From assembly GCA_043742065.1 (NCBI GenBank), contig JAYTZD010000368.1, forward strand, positions 1 through 6,240: DNA of 6,240 nucleotides. The letters are read 5' to 3'. A model generated the notes under the pieces. The model was not told the origin of the DNA, did no database searches, and worked only from the letters and a program-made list of their open reading frames with translations. Numbering within the stretch: position 1 is the stretch's first letter; each line of letters starts with the position of its first letter. The DNA comes from Oscillatoriales bacterium (lineage in GTDB: Bacteria > Cyanobacteriota > Cyanobacteriia > Cyanobacteriales > Microcoleaceae). Both the position numbers and the translations under genes were made by a program. Positions 1 through 6,240 of the stretch are shown here, piece after piece.

Positions 1-132
1 AGTCGATCGCGATATGTCGGTTCTTTTGGTATCATAGGAAAATCCTTCCCACTTTTGTGGGTGGTGAATGAAAGGCGATCGCTCTTGATTTATCAGGTCT
101 GAGGGCGATCGCTATTAACTGTATATTCATTA

Positions 133-152
133 AATTACGATTACTCGTAATT
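133..152 (+). promoter_or_regulatory. Perfect 8-bp inverted repeat AATTACGA-ttac-TCGTAATT, 13 nt upstream of the XRE start. Candidate operator.
   Basis: The palindrome was read directly. It lies between a TATATT -10-like hexamer (122-127) and ATG 165. No convincing -35 was found, so promoter assignment is weak. Confidence 0.3.
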
Positions 153-164
153 GTCAAGGGCGGA

Positions 165-377
165 ATGGGACGAATTAGACTGCGAGTGCGAGAATTTGCT
201 CAAGAGAAGGGTTGGACTCTCAGGGAAGTCTCCAACAGAACAGGTATTCCATACACAACCATCGCCACCTATGCGAACTCTCCAGGTATGGCAACTGTAG
301 ATTACACAGCTTTGGACAAAATGGCCCGTGCGTTTGATATTGCGATCGAAGATTTGGTTGAGATTTTGGAACAATAA
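165..377 (+). CDS. XRE/Cro-C1 family helix-turn-helix transcriptional regulator (70 aa)
   Basis: ATG 165, TAA 375-377. The sequence RVREFAQEKGWTLREVSNRTGIPYTTIATYANS matches the classic HTH_3 pattern: helix, then G-x-T/S-xx-E-L/V-A/S-xx-T/S-G-I/V-xxxTIxxxE/A-N. Its size is typical of stand-alone XRE proteins. Confidence 0.8.
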   Translation: MGRIRLRVREFAQEKGWTLREVSNRTGIPYTTIATYANSPGMATVDYTALDKMARAFDIAIEDLVEILEQ

Positions 378-425
378 ACTGATTTCTCAGCGGGACAATG
401 GGGTTAATTCGGTTGCTAGAAACGG

Positions 426-530
426 AGGACACGGCAATGTCGTTTCCCTACCCCACAATAATCATGAGCCTTCGATGAGAAATGCAACCATCGCCCGATT
501 AATGGTAGGGAAACGGCACTGCCGTGTCCT
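426..530. repeat. Long imperfect inverted repeat with 27-nt arms (426-452 and 504-530) and a 51-nt spacer, between convergent genes. Possible bidirectional terminator or MITE-like/REP-like element.
   Basis: Arm 1 is AGGACACGGCAATGTCGTTTCCCTACC and arm 2 is GGTAGGGAAACGGCACTGCCGTGTCCT. Of 27 positions, 25 are Watson-Crick pairs, 1 is a G-T wobble and 1 is a mismatch. Arm 2 also contains the internal palindrome ACGGCAcTGCCGT. The repeat starts 49 nt after the XRE stop and ends 9 nt from the RelE-like stop. Confidence 0.5.
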
Positions 531-538
531 GAATGACT

Positions 539-913
539 TTAAACATCTGTTTCTTCAGATTGCGTGCTGAATGCTTTAATAATTTGGCGAATCTCCCCTA
601 CTTCAATATCTTGCTGGTCAGACTTTGAGTAAATGTCTAATAAAACAATCAATTCAGGCGATGAAATCCAGTAAATCAGGCGATAACCGCCACTTTTACC
701 TTTTTGAATATCGCTATTTTTAAGCCGCACTTTCATAACTTTAGAGCCAATACCAGGGATTTGATCTCCAAGAAATGCTCCAAATTGCAACTGCTCAAGG
801 ATAGGATGAAGATCGGCTTGGACTTGGCGATATTTCTTTGCTAGGGTTCTCAGTTTGCGCCGAAATTCAGGGGTCAACCGAATTTCTACCAAAGGTGTGT
901 CAGTCAACGTCAA
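539..913 (-). CDS. Type II toxin-antitoxin system RelE/ParE-superfamily toxin (about 122-124 aa)
   Basis: The motif KVRLKNSDIQKGKSGGYRLIYWISSPELIVLLDIYSKSDQQDI matches the conserved K-x-R...GKSGGYR-hIY...h-hLL-x-hY-x-K core of RelE/ParE-type addiction toxins. No ATG is available, so the start is TTG at 913 or 907. GGGAGG at 922-917 gives better spacing for 907. The gene overlaps the upstream antitoxin ORF by 14 nt. Confidence 0.85.
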   Translation of the reverse strand: MTLTDTPLVEIRLTPEFRRKLRTLAKKYRQVQADLHPILEQLQFGAFLGDQIPGIGSKVMKVRLKNSDIQKGKSGGYRLIYWISSPELIVLLDIYSKSDQQDIEVGEIRQIIKAFSTQSEETDV

Positions 914-1139
914 TGCCCTCCCAAAGTTCAGAAAGGGGTAGAGTTTGTCCGGTTACAGCTTGATGCCAGGATGTGCGAAAACTTTCTGCTGAAAAGTCTG
1001 TATCTGCTTCGGGCGTGATTTTGTTTTCTAGAGAATGGGTTTGTTGAATGATTGTGGATAGTGTTTTTAGGAGTTCAAGCTGCTCTGTGAATGAAAGCGA
1101 TCGAGCCAGATTGATGGTTTGTTGAAGTTGCGATGTCAT
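900..1139 (-). CDS. Putative antitoxin partner of the RelE/ParE-like toxin (79 aa; the maximal ORF extends to 1163)
   Basis: This small acidic ORF lies immediately upstream of the toxin and overlaps it. GGAGA lies 7 nt before ATG 1139, whereas ATG 1163 has no SD. The segment SLSFTEQLELLKTLSTIIQQ resembles the helical 'addiction module component' type of cyanobacterial antitoxin. The family was not identified with certainty. Confidence 0.6.
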   Translation of the reverse strand: MTSQLQQTINLARSLSFTEQLELLKTLSTIIQQTHSLENKITPEADTDFSAESFRTSWHQAVTGQTLPLSELWEGIDVD

Positions 1140-1299
1140 GGTGCATTCTCCATTTTTACTCATTTTACAGTTTTAATTGCTCCTGCACCCATTCTCGCAG
1201 TTTGCTCGTCGGGGTCGTTCCTGTAAAAAAATACGGATATTGGCATTTTCCGACTGTAGACTAAAGTCAGGAGTTGTTCAGTCTGCCGGAGTTAAATCA

Positions 1300-1791
1300 A
1301 TGCCGATCGATCGTCTGTCTGACATGGAAGAAAACTTGGAATCGCTGCAAGAGCAATTAGTGGGCAAGGTGAAGGCGCTAAATTTAGCACCGCAAGAAGA
1401 CAAGACCCGAATTAAACTGCAAATTCGAGAGCTACGCAAGGAGATTCGGGAACAGGAACAGGATTATTGGCAGGTTTTCGCTAGACAAACGAAAACAGTG
1501 GAAATTCCCGAACCGGAAGCTGAGATTATTGTTGCCGAGATTGTCGAAGAAGTTGGGCAAATTGAAGTGCAGCGACAGTATCCCGGTGAAGTGATTCAGA
1601 TATTGCAGCAGATTCGGGACAAGCTGAACCAACCGGGACCCACGGCAGCCGCGAAACTTAAAGGTGTCATTTCCAGCATTCCGCCGTTTGTGGGACTTTC
1701 CATAGAGGGAGAATTCGATGCAGAGAATTTTTTCCAGCAGCATTTCCCAACATTTCGGAAATGGTCTAAGGCACTAGCAAAAAAGTCCTAG
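1300..1791 (+). CDS. Hypothetical coiled-coil protein (163 aa), or the N-terminal module of the downstream NB-ARC protein if the frameshift at 1779-1785 is decoded or corrected
   Basis: ATG 1300 is preceded by GGAG (1288-1291) with an 8-nt spacer. The TTG-1177 extension in the ORF track is rich in R, C and S and does not look like protein. Heptad-like charged region: EENLESLQEQLVGKVKALNLAPQEDKTRIKLQIRELRKEIREQEQDYW. This is followed by an acidic stretch (VEIPEPEAEIIVAEIVEEVGQIEV) and a short hydrophobic segment (GVISSIPPFVGLSI). The ORF ends GCA AAA AAG TCC TAG. Confidence 0.6.
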   Translation: MPIDRLSDMEENLESLQEQLVGKVKALNLAPQEDKTRIKLQIRELRKEIREQEQDYWQVFARQTKTVEIPEPEAEIIVAEIVEEVGQIEVQRQYPGEVIQILQQIRDKLNQPGPTAAAKLKGVISSIPPFVGLSIEGEFDAENFFQQHFPTFRKWSKALAKKS

Positions 1792-1823
1792 ACCTGGAGC
1801 GGAATACACCCAATCCAGGTTTA
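1767..1823 (+). promoter_or_regulatory. Candidate -1 ribosomal frameshift (recoding) cassette: SD-like TAAGG, slippery A AAA AAG, 0-frame stop and a downstream stem-loop
   Basis: TAAGG is at 1767-1771. The heptamer at 1779-1785 is in X XXY YYZ register for the 1300-1791 frame. TAG is at 1789-1791. The stem is 1789-1798 paired with 1814-1823 (core ACCTGGA/TCCAGGT plus U-A, A-U and G-U closing pairs), with a 15-nt loop. A -1 slip enters the NB-ARC frame exactly at 1785. Confidence 0.4.
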
Positions 1824-1895
1824 ACAATTTTTTACCAACTTTACGATATTCCCTCCGAACTCGGTTCCAAAAACTTTGTCGGGCGGGATGAAGAG

Positions 1896-4199
1896 ATGCA
1901 GCAATTGCACGAATTGTTGCAGGATGGGAGCCGCGTTGCCATTGCCGCTGCGTCGGGAATGGGCGGCATCGGCAAGACAGAATTAGCATGGCAGTATGCA
2001 ACTTTTCACCGCGATCGCAATACCTATTCAGCCGGGATTTGGTGGCTGTTTGTGCGGGAAATCGATTTAGCGCCGCAGGTGTTGCAAAAATCGCTGCGAA
2101 TGGGAATTCAGCCGCCGGATACTCTCGACAATCTGGAGGAACGGTTGCAGTTTTGCTACGAAGAGTGGGCAAAAAAAACCTCTGGCAATGCTCTGCTGGT
2201 ATTGGATGATGTCAGCGATTACCGCGCGGTACAGTCGTTGCTGCCTAGAAATCCCCGCTTTAAGGTGTTGCTGACAGCGCGACAAATTGTGCCTCCACCT
2301 GTGGGGTGTTTGCCGTTAAAAGTGTTGAAACCAGAGGCGGCGCTAAACTTGCTGCGGCTGACGGCTGGGGATTTGCCGGGAAACGGGCTGGGACGGATTG
2401 ATGCCCAGCTTGAAGATGCTGAAGCGCTTTGTCAGTGGTTGGATTATTTGCCTTTGGGCATCGAACTGGTGGGGCGCTATCTGCGACGCAAGCGGGCGCT
2501 GTCCGTGGCAGAAATGCTGCAACGGTTGCAGAGTCAGCGATTGGAGGCGCGGGCATTGCAGGAGGCGGAAGCTGGGATGACGGCTAGGCGCGGAGTGGCA
2601 GCAGCTTTTGAGTTGAGTTGGGCGGAGTTGAAACCTCCGGCGCGGACGCTGGGGTGTCTGCTGAGCGTGTTTGCGCTGGCTCCGATTCCTTGGGAGTTGG
2701 TAGCCGATTGTTTGCCGGATTGGGATGGGGAGGATTTGGAGGATTGTCGGGATGACGAACTGCTGGAACAGAGTTTGCTGTCGCTGGTGGAGGATGAAAC
2801 CTCCGATCCGGTTCAATCTGGGCTAGTGCAGCCGCGCTATCAACTTCATGCTTTGATTCGGGAGTTTTTTGCGGCGAAATTGCAGGAACGCGCCGATGCT
2901 GAGGATTTGCGGAGAAGTTTTGCGGTGGCGCTGACAGCGGTGGCAAAGACGATTTCGTATCCGGTGAGGCTGGAGGTGTATGAACGGGTGAAGGAGGTGC
3001 TGCCACATTTGGAGGTGTTGGCGGAGCAATGGTCGCATTTACTGAAAGATAGTGATGCTGTATGGTCTTTCACTAGCTTAGGGTGGGTTGCTCAGGGACA
3101 GAGTTTTTGGGTAGAGGCAGAGAAGTGGTTCAAAGCTTGCCTCCAGATGACAGAGCAACGCTGCGGAACCGACCATCCCGGTACGGCAACGAGTTTGAAC
3201 AACCTGGCAGACCTATACCGTGTAATGGGAGACTGCCCGGAGGCTGAACCCTTGTTAGTGCGATCGCTCTCGATCTGGGAGCAACAGCTCGGAGCTGACC
3301 ATCCCCAGACGGCAAGTAGTTTGAACAATCTGGCAGCGCTGTATTATGCAATGGGTCGTTACGCGGAGGCAGAACCCTTGTTTGTGCGAGCGCTCGCGAT
3401 CAGGGAGCAGCAGCTCGGAGCCGACCATCCCGATACAGCAGGCAGTTTGAACAACCTGGCAGAGCTATACCGTGAAACTGGATGCTACTCGGAGGCGGAA
3501 TCCTTATTGGTGCGATCGGTCGCCATCATAGAGCAGCAGCTCGGAGCCGAGCATCCCCACACGGCTATGAGTTTGAACAATCTAGCAACTCTGTACCATT
3601 CAATGAGTCGCTACGCGGAGGCGGAACCCTTGTTAGTGCGATCGCTCGCCATCTGGGAGCAGCAGCTAGGAACCGACCATCCCCATACTGCTCAGAGTTT
3701 ACACAATCTGGCAGAGCTATACCGTGCAATGAGATGCTACTCGGAGGCGGAACCTTTGTTAGTGCGATCGCTGTCGATCTACCAGCAGCAGAAGCAGCAG
3801 CTAGGAGTTGACCATCCTGATACGGCAAGTAGTTTGAACAGTCTGGCAGGGCTGTACAAGTCAATGGGACGCTACGCGGAGGCGGAATCCTTGTTAGTGC
3901 AAGCGCTCTCGATCTGCGAGCAACAGCCAGGAGCCGACCATCCCGATACGGCAAATAGTTTGAACAGTCTGGCATTGCTGTACCGTGCAATGGGTCGCTA
4001 CCCGGAGGCGGAACCCTTGTATTTGGGAGCATTAGAAATCTTGTTTAACCGATTAGGAGAGGAACATCCAAATACCCGAACCACTTGGAGCAATTTCATT
4101 TATTTTCTTCAGGAGGCGATGTCAGCGGGTCAAGAATCCAAACTTTCCCAGCATCCAACAACGCAATCAATACTTCAGCAACTTCGGGAGATGGAGTAG
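1896..4199 (+). CDS. NB-ARC (STAND, AP-ATPase type) NTPase with a C-terminal TPR array; a bacterial NLR-like protein. The true N-terminus is probably upstream of ATG 1896.
   Basis: Walker A is GMGGIGKTELA (1956-1988) and Walker B is LLVLDDV (2193-2213). KVLLTAR (2262-2282) is RNBS-B/sensor-1-like, and YLPLGIELVG (2445-2474) is GLPL-like. YQLHALIREF is MHD-like, with its His codon at 2847-2849. About 8 units of the 42-aa TPR_10/12 type follow, with consensus LGxDHPxTAxSLNNLAxLYxxMGRYxEAEPLLVRSLAIxEQQ. Confidence 0.92.
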   Translation: MQQLHELLQDGSRVAIAAASGMGGIGKTELAWQYATFHRDRNTYSAGIWWLFVREIDLAPQVLQKSLRMGIQPPDTLDNLEERLQFCYEEWAKKTSGNALLVLDDVSDYRAVQSLLPRNPRFKVLLTARQIVPPPVGCLPLKVLKPEAALNLLRLTAGDLPGNGLGRIDAQLEDAEALCQWLDYLPLGIELVGRYLRRKRALSVAEMLQRLQSQRLEARALQEAEAGMTARRGVAAAFELSWAELKPPARTLGCLLSVFALAPIPWELVADCLPDWDGEDLEDCRDDELLEQSLLSLVEDETSDPVQSGLVQPRYQLHALIREFFAAKLQERADAEDLRRSFAVALTAVAKTISYPVRLEVYERVKEVLPHLEVLAEQWSHLLKDSDAVWSFTSLGWVAQGQSFWVEAEKWFKACLQMTEQRCGTDHPGTATSLNNLADLYRVMGDCPEAEPLLVRSLSIWEQQLGADHPQTASSLNNLAALYYAMGRYAEAEPLFVRALAIREQQLGADHPDTAGSLNNLAELYRETGCYSEAESLLVRSVAIIEQQLGAEHPHTAMSLNNLATLYHSMSRYAEAEPLLVRSLAIWEQQLGTDHPHTAQSLHNLAELYRAMRCYSEAEPLLVRSLSIYQQQKQQLGVDHPDTASSLNSLAGLYKSMGRYAEAESLLVQALSICEQQPGADHPDTANSLNSLALLYRAMGRYPEAEPLYLGALEILFNRLGEEHPNTRTTWSNFIYFLQEAMSAGQESKLSQHPTTQSILQQLREME
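3162..4133 (+). repeat. Tandem 126-bp (42-codon) coding repeats: 7 full TPR units plus a degenerate cap. Unit 5 carries a 9-bp insertion.
   Basis: Unit starts are at 3162, 3288, 3414, 3540, 3666, 3801, 3927 and 4053. The period is exactly 126 nt, except for 135 nt in unit 5. Long strings recur across units, including gaccatccc, agtttgaacaa(t/c)ctggca and gcggaggcggaaccctt(g)ttagtgcgatcgct. A more degenerate half unit precedes the array at about 3048-3161. Confidence 0.92.
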
Positions 4200-4218
4200 C
4201 TGTTGTTTAAATTAGGAA

Positions 4219-4313
4219 TTACGCATAGGCCCCAGAAACCGGGTTTTTTCGAGAAGACTTCGTTACAGCCCACAAATTCGGTAAAAACCCGGTTTCTTTG
4301 TCGGAGTGCGTAA
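4219..4313. repeat. Nested inverted repeat between convergent genes. Possible bidirectional terminator or MITE-like element.
   Basis: The inner arms are perfect 15-mers: AGAAACCGGGTTTTT (4234-4248) and AAAAACCCGGTTTCT (4283-4297), with a 34-nt spacer. The outer arms are TTACGCA (4219-4225) and TGCGTAA (4307-4313). The repeat starts 20 nt after the NB-ARC stop. An additional hairpin, GAGTGCG(4304-4310)/CGCACTC(4322-4328), overlaps the right end. Confidence 0.45.
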
Positions 4314-4404
4314 ATCTCGATCGCACTCAATTCCACCAATCCTCATAAATCGCCAAAATCTTCAATCCCGGTACGAATTGCCAAAAGTGCGATCGCATAG
4401 TAGG

Positions 4405-4650
4405 CTAGGCAACTTCTTCTAACTCAGGAATATGTTCGGCTTCATAGTTTTCAATTAAAACACCAATAACGTCCATCATCGAAGCAAGCGGATGGTTTTC
4501 ATCCTCGCCAACTATATCGATCAGAGTATCTAGTAGCTCGACTAAATGCTCGTATTCTGCTTCGATGCGAGGGACAAAAACCGTTTCAGCAATCAGTGTC
4601 CAAGCAGTAATTGTTCTATCCAGATTAAGACTTTTCATCATTCTTTCCAC
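4405..4650 (-). CDS. higA: HigA-like antitoxin, N-terminal domain only (78-81 aa); the C-terminal HTH domain is absent
   Basis: The gene lies directly downstream of higB and overlaps it. The track start is GTG 4650, but ATG 4641 forms an ATGA overlap with the higB stop and has GAGG 8 nt upstream. The pattern IEAEYEHLVELLDTLIDIVGEDENHPLASMMDVIGVLIENYEAEHIPE matches the N-terminal half of long HigA antitoxins (I-x-x-E-x-x-Y...L...hPL...L...LIxxYE..H.P). The ORF stops where the HTH half would normally begin. Confidence 0.7.
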   Translation of the reverse strand: MERMMKSLNLDRTITAWTLIAETVFVPRIEAEYEHLVELLDTLIDIVGEDENHPLASMMDVIGVLIENYEAEHIPELEEVA

Positions 4651-4925
4651 CTCTCTTCATCGTATTCTGAGTGAGTTAATATAGCCCGAATATATACTTT
4701 ATTCCGATTGTAATGAATAGCAGCAATGAGTCGAACTTTATTTCCTCCTATATTGAAGACAGTCAATTTACCGACTAGATCGGCAGAGGGAAATATTTCG
4801 CGGAGTTCAACGAAGGTTGCAAATTCATTTTGTTTGACAAGTTTGTACCACTGAACCAAGGCATTTGTTGTATCTGGATGAAGTTTAGCAAACTCATTCA
4901 GCCGTTTGCGGGTAATCACGTGCAT
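4638..4925 (-). CDS. higB: Type II toxin HigB (RelE-fold mRNA interferase, HigB_toxin family), 95 aa
   Basis: MHVITRKRLNEFAKLHP...FPSADLVGKLTVFNIGGNKVRLIAAIHYNRNKVYIRAILTHSEYD closely parallels E. coli HigB/YgjN as I recall it (MHLITQKAL...VFNVGGNELRVVAMVFFESQKCYIREVMTHKEYD). The toxin-first gene order is typical of higBA. Confidence 0.9.
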   Translation of the reverse strand: MHVITRKRLNEFAKLHPDTTNALVQWYKLVKQNEFATFVELREIFPSADLVGKLTVFNIGGNKVRLIAAIHYNRNKVYIRAILTHSEYDEERWKE

Positions 4926-5053
4926 ATTAATTTGCTCATGCCTCCTCCTCTTTAATTCTTAGCATTTCACTCAGCATGACATATGGGCTTTGTGTAACAT
5001 CAAGTCAATTTTACCATGAGGATTACAGGTAGATTGCGATTTGTCGTTGGGTG

Positions 5054-5108
5054 GGGGCGGGTTTTTGAGATGGTCATTCGGTGTCGTAAATGTTGGCGAA
5101 CCCGCCCC
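5054..5108 (-). terminator. GC-rich inverted repeat 20 nt downstream of the ubiD stop. Possible terminator, but non-canonical.
   Basis: GGGGCGGGTT (5054-5063) pairs perfectly with AACCCGCCCC (5099-5108). The loop is 35 nt, and no U-tract follows the stem on the minus-strand transcript, so the assignment is weak. Confidence 0.3.
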
Positions 5109-5127
5109 TACAGGTCGATTAATTCCC

Positions 5128-6240
5128 CTACTTCATCTCATATCCAAACAAATTTGGATCGACTTCTCCCAAATTTAAATCGGCCAAACCATACTCAGCC
5201 CAACGCCGCTGAACCATCGCCGTCATATCAGGATCGGATTCCAAAGGTTTACCCCATTCGTGATCGGTTTCCGGCGGCATCTTCGTAGTAGCATCAATGC
5301 CCATTCTGCCTCCCAAACCAATTTTTTCACTGGCAAAATCTAACGTGTCAAAAGGTGTATTCGGCAAGATAAATACATCTCGAACTGGGTCAACTTTAGA
5401 ACTAATTGCCCAGACTACTTGACGCGGATCGCGAATGTTGATACTTTTATCGACAACAATCACAAACTTAGTGTAAGTAAACTGCGGTAATGCACTCCAA
5501 AATGCTAAAGCAGCCCTGCGCGCTTGACCGGGATATGCTTTATCGATCGAGATAATTGCAGCTTTGTAACTCAGGGCTTCCATCGGTAGGAAGAAATCGA
5601 CAATTTCCGATACTTGCTGCCGCAAAATAGGAGTATAAATGCGATTCAGCGCGATCGCCATCATCGCTTCTTCTTTCGGTGGCCGCCCGCTAAATGTGGT
5701 TAGATAAATTGGGTCTTTGCGGTGTGTCATGCAGTTGAATCGTACCAGTGGCGAATCTTCGACACCGCCGTAATAACCCATGTGGTCGCCGAAGGGCCCG
5801 TCTGGCAAAACTTCACCGGGGGTAATCGTTCCTTCTAATACGATTTCCGAGTCTGCGGGTACTTCCAAATCTACGGTTTTGCACTTTGCCAATTGCACGC
5901 CGGAACCGCCATAAAGTCCGGCAAATAACCATTCGGATAAATCTACAGGAATTGGGGTAGCTGCGGCTAGGATGATTAGTGGGTCAACTCCCAGGGCGAT
6001 CGCAACTTCCAACTTTTTACCAGCCTGCGCCGCTTTTCGCAAGTGTCGCGCCCCACCCCGCACCGATAACCAGTGTACAGTCATCGTGTTTTTTGACTGC
6101 AACTGCAACCGATAAACGCCCACATTCGGCGTACCCGTTTCGCAATCTTTGGTAATTACCAAACCCAAGGTGATAATTTTGCCCGCATCTCCCGGATAGG
6201 GGCGAATCATCGGGATTTTGTTCAAATCCAGCCCTTCTCC
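5128..6240 (-). CDS. ubiD: UbiD-family (prenylated-FMN dependent) decarboxylase, likely 4-hydroxy-3-polyprenylbenzoate decarboxylase. Partial: the N-terminus lies beyond the window.
   Basis: The frame stays open to position 6240 (…GEGLDLNKIPMIRP…). The track 'M' at 6225 is a TTG read as Leu. Conserved UbiD strings are present: ITLGLVITKDCETGTPNVGVYRLQL, GGARH, GPFGDHMGYYGG and FVIVVDKSINIRD. Stop TAG is at 5128-5130. Confidence 0.9.
   Translation of the reverse strand, partial: GEGLDLNKIPMIRPYPGDAGKIITLGLVITKDCETGTPNVGVYRLQLQSKNTMTVHWLSVRGGARHLRKAAQAGKKLEVAIALGVDPLIILAAATPIPVDLSEWLFAGLYGGSGVQLAKCKTVDLEVPADSEIVLEGTITPGEVLPDGPFGDHMGYYGGVEDSPLVRFNCMTHRKDPIYLTTFSGRPPKEEAMMAIALNRIYTPILRQQVSEIVDFFLPMEALSYKAAIISIDKAYPGQARRAALAFWSALPQFTYTKFVIVVDKSINIRDPRQVVWAISSKVDPVRDVFILPNTPFDTLDFASEKIGLGGRMGIDATTKMPPETDHEWGKPLESDPDMTAMVQRRWAEYGLADLNLGEVDPNLFGYEMK

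Follow-up and report, generated by a model that had tools for sequence, protein, structure and literature searches.

How can a bacterial NLR-like receptor be made when its N-terminal module and the rest of the protein lie in different reading frames? This question is raised by a window of 6,240 nucleotides (nt), which is the whole stretch of DNA that was analysed (Oscillatoriales bacterium, contig JAYTZD010000368.1, assembly GCA_043742065.1, positions 1-6,240 of the forward strand). The nearest relatives of the proteins in the window come from Microcoleus. Between positions 1300 and 4199, a short open reading frame (ORF1, 163 amino acids (aa)) is followed by a long one (ORF2), which encodes an NB-ARC NTPase with TPR repeats. 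The frame of ORF1 is one base ahead of that of ORF2, and a shift of -1 would join both. In the first-pass annotation, the frameshift was treated as a defect that might have to be "corrected". A conserved recoding signal and a single-gene structure are shown instead by comparative evidence from homologous loci, and the locus is better seen as one gene with two products. We put the probability that it is a single recoded gene, giving a free 163-aa adaptor-like domain and a 966-aa NLR-like protein, at roughly 0.7.

The nature of the long frame is clear. The NLR-like STAND protein recognised in the first-pass annotation is borne out by Pfam matches to NB-ARC and TPR and by the motifs of the ORF2 translation, namely Walker A (GMGGIGKT, 1956-1979), Walker B (LLVLDDV), a GLPL-like motif (LPLGIEL) and an MHD-like motif (LHALIRE). 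The NB-ARC motifs and the C-terminal repeat sensor that characterise NLR-like STAND NTPases are both present. The tripartite logic, the intact NB-ARC motifs, the near-repetitive TPR array at the DNA level, the variable length of ORF2 and the flanking toxin-antitoxin genes are shared with the bacterial NLR-like STAND proteins of cyanobacteria and actinobacteria (NB-ARC or NACHT with TPR or WD repeats; Avs, bNACHT). The locus differs from them in three respects. ORF2 gave no match to the Avs and bNACHT models of PADLOC-DB v2 and matched only a generic TPR model (3.7e-10), the N-terminal module is no recognised effector, and it is joined by putative recoding rather than by a continuous ORF. In the DNA, the sensor appears as a 126-nt unit repeated 6.7 times (3164-4020, 77% matches, Tandem Repeats Finder). 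Among the Microcoleus loci, ORF2 is between 730 and 927 aa long. The tandem array and the varying length suggest that repeat units are gained and lost in the sensor.

The slippery site and the frame behind it

The 3' end of ORF1 reads GCA AAA AAG TCC TAG, so that the heptamer A_AAA_AAG lies in frame, one codon ahead of the stop. The same heptamer serves as the slippery site in E. coli dnaX and in IS3-family elements (PMC5009743, PMC3711429). The -1 frame is open from five codons 5' of the heptamer through to 4199, and its first ATG, GTG or TTG is at 1896, past the FVGRDEE motif. All relatives examined have an FVGRxxEL motif directly ahead of the P-loop of these NTPases, and a protein begun at 1896 would therefore miss conserved sequence. 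A predicted hairpin begins 3 nt after the heptamer. It has a stem of 10 bp (1789-1798 with 1814-1823), a loop of 15 nt and a folding energy of -16.8 kcal/mol; its z-score is -4.31, and none of 200 dinucleotide-preserving shuffles folded as well. Rfam holds no known frameshift element that matches the region, and no terminator-like site was found on the plus strand between ORF1 and ORF2. The N-terminal module would be on the same polypeptide as the NB-ARC and TPR parts only if a -1 frameshift occurs, for which the comparative evidence is strong.

Of the homologous loci gathered, nine are from species-representative genomes, 61 from metagenomes (40-85% protein identity; the scan was made with 12 sequences), three from isolate assemblies and two from finished plasmids. 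The heptamer was tabulated for 64 loci with 44 distinct contexts, which span 40-90% protein identity; about nine recovered loci were left out of the table as disrupted or mis-framed matches or as read-through fusions. An in-frame heptamer ends the ORF1 homologue in 64 of 64 loci, 0-3 codons before the stop, and it reads A_AAA_AAG in 40 of the 44 contexts and A_AAA_AAA in four. The same site is present in the three isolate loci (Stenomitos frigidus ULC029, complete genome CP170648.1; Phormidium sp. CLA17; Anabaena sp. UHCC 0451) and the two plasmid loci (Crinalium PCC 9333 and Nostoc sp. C057), which were checked apart from the 64. The Lys-Lys terminus is retained by members of the ORF1 family down to about 30% identity. 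Conservation of the synonymous positions of a zero-frame X_XXY_YYZ heptamer, as seen here, points to a programmed -1 frameshift of the dnaX/IS3 type.

The same terminus might simply close an independent gene. ORF1 would then encode a small helical protein with a functional Lys-Lys tail, for which AAAAAAG is nothing but the coding sequence, and the NB-ARC-TPR protein would have a start of its own, either ATG 1896 or a near-cognate codon. ORF1 is complete, conserved and terminated by a stop; the Microcoleus clade keeps ATG 1896, which follows purine-rich sequence; a -1-frame start codon lies 5' of the heptamer in L075 and a few other loci; and close-spaced pairs of adjacent effector and NLR genes are known in cyanobacteria. 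However, the synonymous sites of the tail are fixed. Of 193 Lys-Lys pairs at other places in the long ORFs of these loci, only 5 are written A_AAA_AAG, and AAA-AAA is the usual form (119 of 193). The codon before the heptamer may be GCA, CTA, CCA, AAA, GTA or ACA, with a final A in all six regardless of the amino acid.

The linker tells against two genes as well. The 37 codons 5' of ATG 1896, FVGRDEE included, appear to be under coding constraint in the frame of ORF2. When the linker is compared codon by codon between pairs of 16 loci of the Microcoleus clade, the -1 frame yields 458 synonymous and 411 nonsynonymous differences. The two remaining frames give ratios of 54:766 and 174:663, and both hold stop codons in every locus. 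The linker thus seems to evolve as coding sequence in the -1 frame alone. In most loci, this frame continues for 1.2-2.8 kb, and its first canonical start is usually past the FVGR motif. In other clades, a leucine aligns with Met-1896 and the first start is found within Walker A (L046, L057-L060) or, in the Anabaena locus L074, 96 codons past it. No near-cognate start is conserved either, as CTG is replaced by CAG or CGG and ATT by AGT. Together with the enrichment of hairpins and Shine-Dalgarno (SD)-like elements at canonical spacings, described below, these observations make two independent genes quite improbable. The first-pass annotation had left open whether the N-terminal module was encoded just upstream or fused by frameshift, and both halves of this description hold: it is a conserved separate ORF, and a conserved slippery site connects it with ORF2.

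It could also be asked whether the break in the frame is an accident, in which a once-fused NLR gene lost one A, either in the cell as a pseudogene or on paper as a homopolymer sequencing error. Homopolymers are prone to such errors, and one added A restores a single ORF. In two loci (L044 and L045, the same sequence in two separate assemblies), A7 replaces A6 (GCA AAA AAA GCT, 3451-3480) and a single ORF of 722 codons results. This ORF encodes the domain, a NACHT-like NTPase and a hydrophobic C-terminus rich in Gly, Leu and Val. Nevertheless, the out-of-frame state is found in all intact recovered loci except these two, across independent metagenomes, isolates, one complete chromosome and the two finished plasmids. 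Both ORFs are intact, with purifying selection on each side of the junction, and ORF2 of the relatives does not accumulate disabling mutations. A private sequencing error is excluded, since over 100 protein clusters (90% identity) contain ORF1 as an ORF of its own that has about 163 aa and ends in a stop. An accidental break is barely credible.

The A6 and A7 alleles, which occur within one orthologous group (L026 versus L044/L045), might point to phase variation at the DNA level. Slipped-strand mispairing would switch on the full-length NLR in a subpopulation of cells, and the consensus genome would represent the OFF state. Some relatives have longer A9 runs, which are more mutable. However, A6 is short for efficient slipped-strand mispairing, and the ON state is seen in only two of the 64 assembled loci. 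The exact X_XXY_YYZ register with its 3' G, the hairpins 2-9 nt downstream and the SD-like elements 10 nt upstream would also be left unexplained. Phase variation is considered very improbable. Continuous versions of the protein also exist in other members of the family: P0219 is an in-frame fusion of the domain, a STAND P-loop NTPase and TPR repeats (1315 aa), and P0184 joins the domain to nSTAND1. In-frame fused homologues, along with a start-less -1 ORF that is apparently under coding constraint, are consistent with programmed frameshifting.

Stimulatory elements are known to accompany the heptamer in dnaX and IS3, and their counterparts were sought near the sites of the relatives. An RNA structure lies a few nucleotides past the heptamer in the window and in many other loci. 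Perfect hairpins of at least 7 bp, 2-9 nt past the heptamer, are found at 23 of 53 distinct sites versus 2.2% of random positions; the mean folding z-score is -1.54 at the sites and -0.36 in control windows (p 7e-5), and SD-like pairing upstream averages -6.6 versus -3.2 kcal/mol (p 8e-12), shared ancestry not being taken into account in these or any other of the statistics given here. The stems represent at least 10 unrelated sequences across clades. In several clades that have no perfect hairpin (L051-L070, L057), a strong AGGGGTG or AAGGAGG element stands 10-11 nt upstream, and in L053 a strong SD-like element and a hairpin occur together. The loci with A9 runs have no hairpins, which fits transcriptional slippage in those lineages.

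The resemblance to dnaX and IS3 is close. The heptamer is identical, a hairpin follows within a few nucleotides, many relatives of the window locus have an SD-like element about 10 nt upstream, and two proteins with a common N-terminus would be made. The shifted product would be the long one and the zero-frame product ends just past the site, which is also the case for IS3 orfAB. The differences lie in the host gene, which is an NLR-like STAND receptor rather than a gene of replication or transposition and is known here from its sequence, and in the mobility of the site, which appears to move with the N-terminal domain as a cassette before many unrelated partners.

Public annotations of the isolate and plasmid loci begin the downstream gene late or miss it. 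The gene call in Anabaena sp. UHCC 0451 (L074) omits the Walker A motif, and the RefSeq starts on the Crinalium PCC 9333 plasmid (L076, NACHT) and the Nostoc sp. C057 plasmid (L077, FGE-family) lie 174 and 201 nt past the heptamer. From these late starts, it follows that current annotation truncates the three proteins. In Phormidium sp. CLA17 (L072), a -1 ORF of 676 codons carries no gene call at all.

The ORF1 domain and its partners

What, then, is the domain that would be made in two forms? The N-terminal module is no orphan and belongs to a widespread family. An exhaustive, profile-free search gave 184 representatives at 50% identity. Most members stand alone, have about 165 aa and come from filamentous cyanobacteria (Microcoleus, Stenomitos, Phormidium, Phormidesmis, Anabaena and Nostoc), and all named members are labelled "hypothetical protein" at NCBI. 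Homologues share the start methionine of ORF1 (MPIDRL...). AlphaFold2, run on a 67-sequence alignment, predicts an all-alpha structure of eight helices (pLDDT 89.3, pTM 0.77), of which the first two are long (residues 3-29 and 32-64) and the other six shorter. A charged coiled coil (MPIDRLSDMEENLESLQEQL...) forms the N-terminus, and the domain has one conserved hydrophobic stretch, GVISSIPPFVGLSI.

Searches for a known relative of the domain were negative. ORF1 has no match in Pfam or NCBIfam and nothing meaningful in PADLOC, where a coiled-coil-type match of 0.0016 was the only one. With 67 family members, Pfam gave scattered coiled-coil noise and sub-threshold matches to EAD9 (PF19962) in 6 of 67 (best E 0.008), and with 10 distant members it gave none. 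The best Foldseek match in the PDB, to the ESCRT-III protein CdvB, is non-significant (E 0.59; TM 0.3-0.4 among the top matches), as is the best in BFVD (E 0.22), and a profile search of PDB sequences gave no match (best E 0.068). No homologue was found in the phage collection. AlphaFold/Foldseek, Pfam and PADLOC thus all failed to connect the domain with a well-characterised effector or adaptor family. The helical ORF1 domain stands, as the first-pass annotation had described it, as the sole N-terminal module of the locus and as a member of no annotated effector family in Pfam, NCBIfam, PADLOC and the fold searches. TIR, nuclease, protease, caspase and transmembrane effector signatures were not found at the locus with Pfam, NCBIfam and PADLOC. 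The statement that there is no effector is right for this locus and does not extend beyond it, where relatives carry TIR or TRADD-N before the domain.

The partners of the domain are more informative. It is found C-terminal to TIR (P0127), HTH plus TRADD-N (P0122, P0333), SNF2 helicase (P0126), ROCO (P0223) and a NACHT-like NTPase (P0218). In other proteins it comes first and is followed, in frame, by a STAND NTPase with TPR, by nSTAND1, or by membrane-anchored TPR or periplasmic-binding domains. The same heptamer links it to downstream NB-ARC, NACHT, nSTAND1-like, nSTAND4, VMAP-C, GUN4 and membrane plus FGE-sulfatase proteins. A junction-centred protein search gave no close in-frame fusion. 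In that search, the paralogue P0333 was 85% identical over the domain part included in the query, and the nearest NB-ARC relatives had EAD1 (PF19955), PF19959, PF25000, TIR or trypsin at their N-termini.

Such a distribution resembles that of effector-associated domains (EADs). As defined by Kaur et al. (2020/2021), EADs are small, non-catalytic, terminal domains shared by core components and by effector or signalling proteins, and homotypic contacts have been proposed for them (PMC7159879, PMC8195603). The ORF1 domain is likewise all-alpha, terminal and apparently non-enzymatic, as are EAD1-12 and bDLD. It is found on STAND and VMAP-C proteins and on TIR and TRADD-N proteins, so that its architectures appear to combine core components with effector or signalling proteins, and its paralogues, such as P0333, are closely related. 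By sequence, it falls into no described EAD family. The two copies that the EAD principle demands could here come from one gene through frameshifting, not from two genes. The ORF1 domain belongs to an unannotated all-alpha family and, judged from its domain architectures, probably behaves as an effector-associated adaptor. Among the outputs that the first-pass annotation had suggested, recruitment of a partner encoded elsewhere would then be the best supported.

Amyloid-signalling gene pairs offer another comparison. In the Bell/BASS pairs, Bell is a helical bundle of about 100 aa with a hydrophobic N-terminal helix (Dyrka et al. 2020). As in these pairs and in fungal HET-S/NWD2, the gene of a small helical protein directly precedes, and is collinear with, the NB-ARC-TPR gene of a filamentous bacterium. 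ORF1 itself was rejected as a Bell domain, as it has no hydrophobic N-terminal helix and about 160 aa; it is set apart by the description of Bell, without a direct alignment. No paired motif was apparent on reading the C-terminus of ORF1 and the N-terminus of the NLR, for which no dedicated motif search was made. In one group of relatives (L052, L055, L062, L065 and others), the -1 frame shuts 32 codons after the heptamer (at about 3490-4250 in L062). The 32-aa tail that would be gained after the shift has the motif RTINISQSGIGNTQNNIFNL. A matching sequence, MKINIEQDGNDNNQNNTFNL, forms the N-terminus of an NB-ARC-TPR protein whose gene is 0.7 kb further downstream, beyond a RelB/ParE-like toxin-antitoxin pair. 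The match recalls the short C-terminal motif of Bell/BASS pairs and, by analogy with them, would mean that the ORF1 domain acts downstream of an NLR. The window differs in that the link is a putative frameshift, and in the L062-type loci the motif reaches the small protein only after the -1 shift. L061 seems to be an L062-type locus without the interval, in which the domain is joined straight to the NLR.

Several other loci have unusual arrangements. A Logan contig (SRR27453498, L010) has three units of a small N-terminal module and a STAND protein in succession. One version of the domain there is headed by TIR and ends GCA AAA AAG TAA; its heptamer has an 8-bp GC-rich hairpin, and the -1 frame enters a STAND protein with AAA_16 and TPR. 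On the same contig (8253-8985), a 221-aa TIR protein ends ..WQINVSGGTVNIGNPPGQP before a TGA, and the STAND ORF downstream stays in the same frame (..PRSGVVQFVGRDADLHQL..). This junction could be a case of stop-codon readthrough or an effector/NLR pair with an amyloid motif. In L011 (3480-3830), past the linker ..FVGRDEEMQ, the -1 ORF becomes TRADD-N-like (LNYSSDIEEGVKLKKFIRQVNIV..) instead of entering an NB-ARC P-loop; the switch suggests recombination between paralogous cassettes (compare P0333, which has HTH, TRADD-N and the domain). The Microcoleus locus L008 (4001-4565) has an ORF1 homologue with an internal stop when read from the start of the match. Its sequence past GCAAAAAAGTCCTAG is wholly unlike the NLR linker, and the contig ends 76 nt further on. 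It may be a degraded or rearranged copy.

A working mechanism can be proposed from these elements. Under standard decoding, translation would begin at 1300 and stop at TAG 1789, and a free helical domain of 163 aa would be released. Some ribosomes would slip by -1 on A_AAA_AAG, aided by the hairpin and possibly also by the nearby stop codon, and continue to 4199, which would give the 966-aa NLR-like protein. Slippage of RNA polymerase on the A-run could lead to the same two proteins and may be the likelier route in the A9 relatives. Once the TPR array binds its ligand, the NB-ARC module would oligomerise on NTP, and the fused N-domains would cluster. These clusters would recruit the abundant free N-domain through like-with-like contacts, and could also recruit paralogues that bear TIR or TRADD-N on the same domain. 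The efficiency of frameshifting would set the ratio of the rare sensor to the abundant adaptor or effector. Purely as an analogy, inflammasome adaptors and CARD-only or PYD-only proteins illustrate how a free copy of a receptor's interaction domain could amplify or damp signalling; no relationship of sequence or fold between them and ORF1 was detected.

Recoding could also serve another output. The ORF1 domain might itself be the executioner, which polymerises or attacks membranes once it is seeded by the NLR, or the free form might be a decoy inhibitor that caps the N-domain of the NLR and sets an activation threshold. No enzymatic effector is encoded at the locus, and in the L062-type loci the domain takes the place of the Bell, TIR or CHAT effectors of amyloid-signalling pairs. 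The predicted model, a long helical hairpin with shorter helices and the conserved hydrophobic stretch, would suit such a role, and even the non-significant best match in the PDB is an ESCRT-III protein. On the other hand, the domain lacks a transmembrane segment, its N-terminus is the charged coiled coil instead of a hydrophobic helix as in Bell or HeLo, and no significant fold match backs pore formation or membrane remodelling. Its frequent fusion after TIR or TRADD-N and before VMAP-C suits an adaptor better. An executioner or decoy role is regarded as rather unlikely.

A number of points weigh against a recoded gene with an adaptor-like free form. In L053, L055, L056 and L075, a -1-frame start codon lies just 5' of the heptamer, and independent initiation is possible there. 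ATG 1896, as conserved as it is in the Microcoleus clade, could give a third, N-terminally truncated product. The shiftiness of A_AAA_AAG hinges on the tRNA-Lys repertoire of the host. The SD-like element upstream of the heptamer in the window is weak (-4.7 kcal/mol). A search for covariation in the hairpin of the Microcoleus clade gave no compensatory change, three loci of this clade break one or two of its pairs, and about half of the lineages have no perfect hairpin. Finally, at about 160 aa, the domain exceeds the typical size of an EAD, and no Pfam match to an EAD family is above the threshold.

Surroundings of the locus

The features of the window are collected in the table below. The NLR-like gene is bracketed by two toxin-antitoxin modules, and an XRE-type HTH gene lies further upstream. 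The antitoxin role of the small ORF that overlaps the HigB toxin gene is suggested by its position. The neighbours fit an accessory or defence-island-like setting. The first-pass annotation had proposed a candidate defence or programmed-cell-death module, and the toxin-antitoxin pairs on both sides and the occurrence of relatives on mobilizable plasmids agree with it, whereas a PADLOC match to Avs is lacking. The spacer between the XRE-type HTH gene and the RelE/ParE-family toxin gene holds a 27-nt inverted repeat (426-452 with 504-530), the arms of which are 93% complementary and 51 nt apart. It could be a regulatory or terminator-like structure. Matches to plant microRNAs in Rfam (E 0.0013, far under the gathering score) are a spurious product of this repeat.

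Table. Features of the window and the matches on which they rest.
Feature	Position	Strand	Evidence or remark
XRE-type HTH gene	165-377	+	
RelE/ParE-family toxin	539-913	-	Pfam RelE 1e-6
RelN-type antitoxin	900-1163	-	NCBIfam TA_RelN_antitoxin 5e-10
GGAG, Shine-Dalgarno-like element	1288-1291	+	8 nt 5' of the ORF1 ATG; read from sequence
ORF1, 163 aa, zero-frame product	1300-1791	+	stop TAG 1789-1791
A_AAA_AAG slippery heptamer, proposed -1 frameshift site	1779-1785	+	in ORF1 frame
ORF2 as read after the putative shift	1784-4199	+	966 aa with ORF1 residues 1-162: N-domain, linker, NB-ARC, TPR
Linker in the -1 frame, VLDLERNTPNPGLTIFYQLYDIPSELGSKNFVGRDEE	1784-1895	+	no ATG, GTG or TTG; carries pre-P-loop FVGRDEE
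Hairpin, candidate frameshift stimulator	1789-1823	+	begins 3 nt after the heptamer
ORF2 as mechanical ORF call, 767 aa	1896-4199	+	ATG 1896 to stop 4199
NB-ARC (STAND) NTPase module	1902-2552	+	Pfam PF00931, E 6.3e-12, residues 3-219 of the ATG-1896 ORF
TPR sensor array, TPR_12/TPR_10 type	3029-4100 (approximate)	+	Pfam TPR_12 E 1.8e-115, 8 stretches; start from the TPR_MalT match (ORF2 residue 378), end past that of the DNA tandem array, 4020
81-aa partner ORF overlapping HigB	4405-4650	-	no family match
HigB toxin	4638-4925	-	Pfam HigB_toxin 1e-30; PADLOC PD-Lambda-2_A 1.5e-23
UbiD-family decarboxylase gene	extends past the right end of the window		

Implications of a proposed two-form receptor gene

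Few chromosomal programmed frameshifts are known in bacteria (prfB, dnaX, copA and csoS2), and most bacterial examples belong to mobile elements and phages. In the literature searched, recoding is not reported for any STAND or NLR gene of bacteria. According to the same literature, a dnaX-type recoding site that is conserved in a bacterial NLR family and moves with an N-terminal domain as a cassette would be new, and so would the ORF1 domain family itself. Neither the adaptor principle nor the occurrence of NB-ARC/TPR NLR-like proteins in multicellular cyanobacteria is new. If the reading given here is true, a class of immune or cell-death receptors joins the short list of chromosomal bacterial frameshifts. 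It would also explain those cyanobacterial NLR genes that seem to have no N-terminal module or are called truncated, as in Anabaena L074 and on the Crinalium plasmid. Annotators and defence-system finders that handle both ORFs apart will misread such loci.

A broader idea, which we hold tentatively and at somewhat less than even odds, is that the domain and its slippery site form a portable cassette. Filamentous cyanobacteria would then make many proteins of their conflict systems in two forms from one gene, an abundant free adaptor or effector and a rare copy of it fused to the sensor. The efficiency of frameshifting would fix the ratio of both and let a few activated receptors nucleate many free subunits. 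Such a cassette would cover NB-ARC, NACHT, nSTAND and VMAP partners as well as the versions headed by TIR or TRADD-N. If true, chromosomal programmed frameshifting would gain a new class within bacterial immunity, and the cassette would be a prokaryotic, translationally encoded counterpart of amplification of the ASC or HET-S type. A recoded receptor gene would also provide a handle on the stoichiometry of receptor to effector in bacterial NLR systems.

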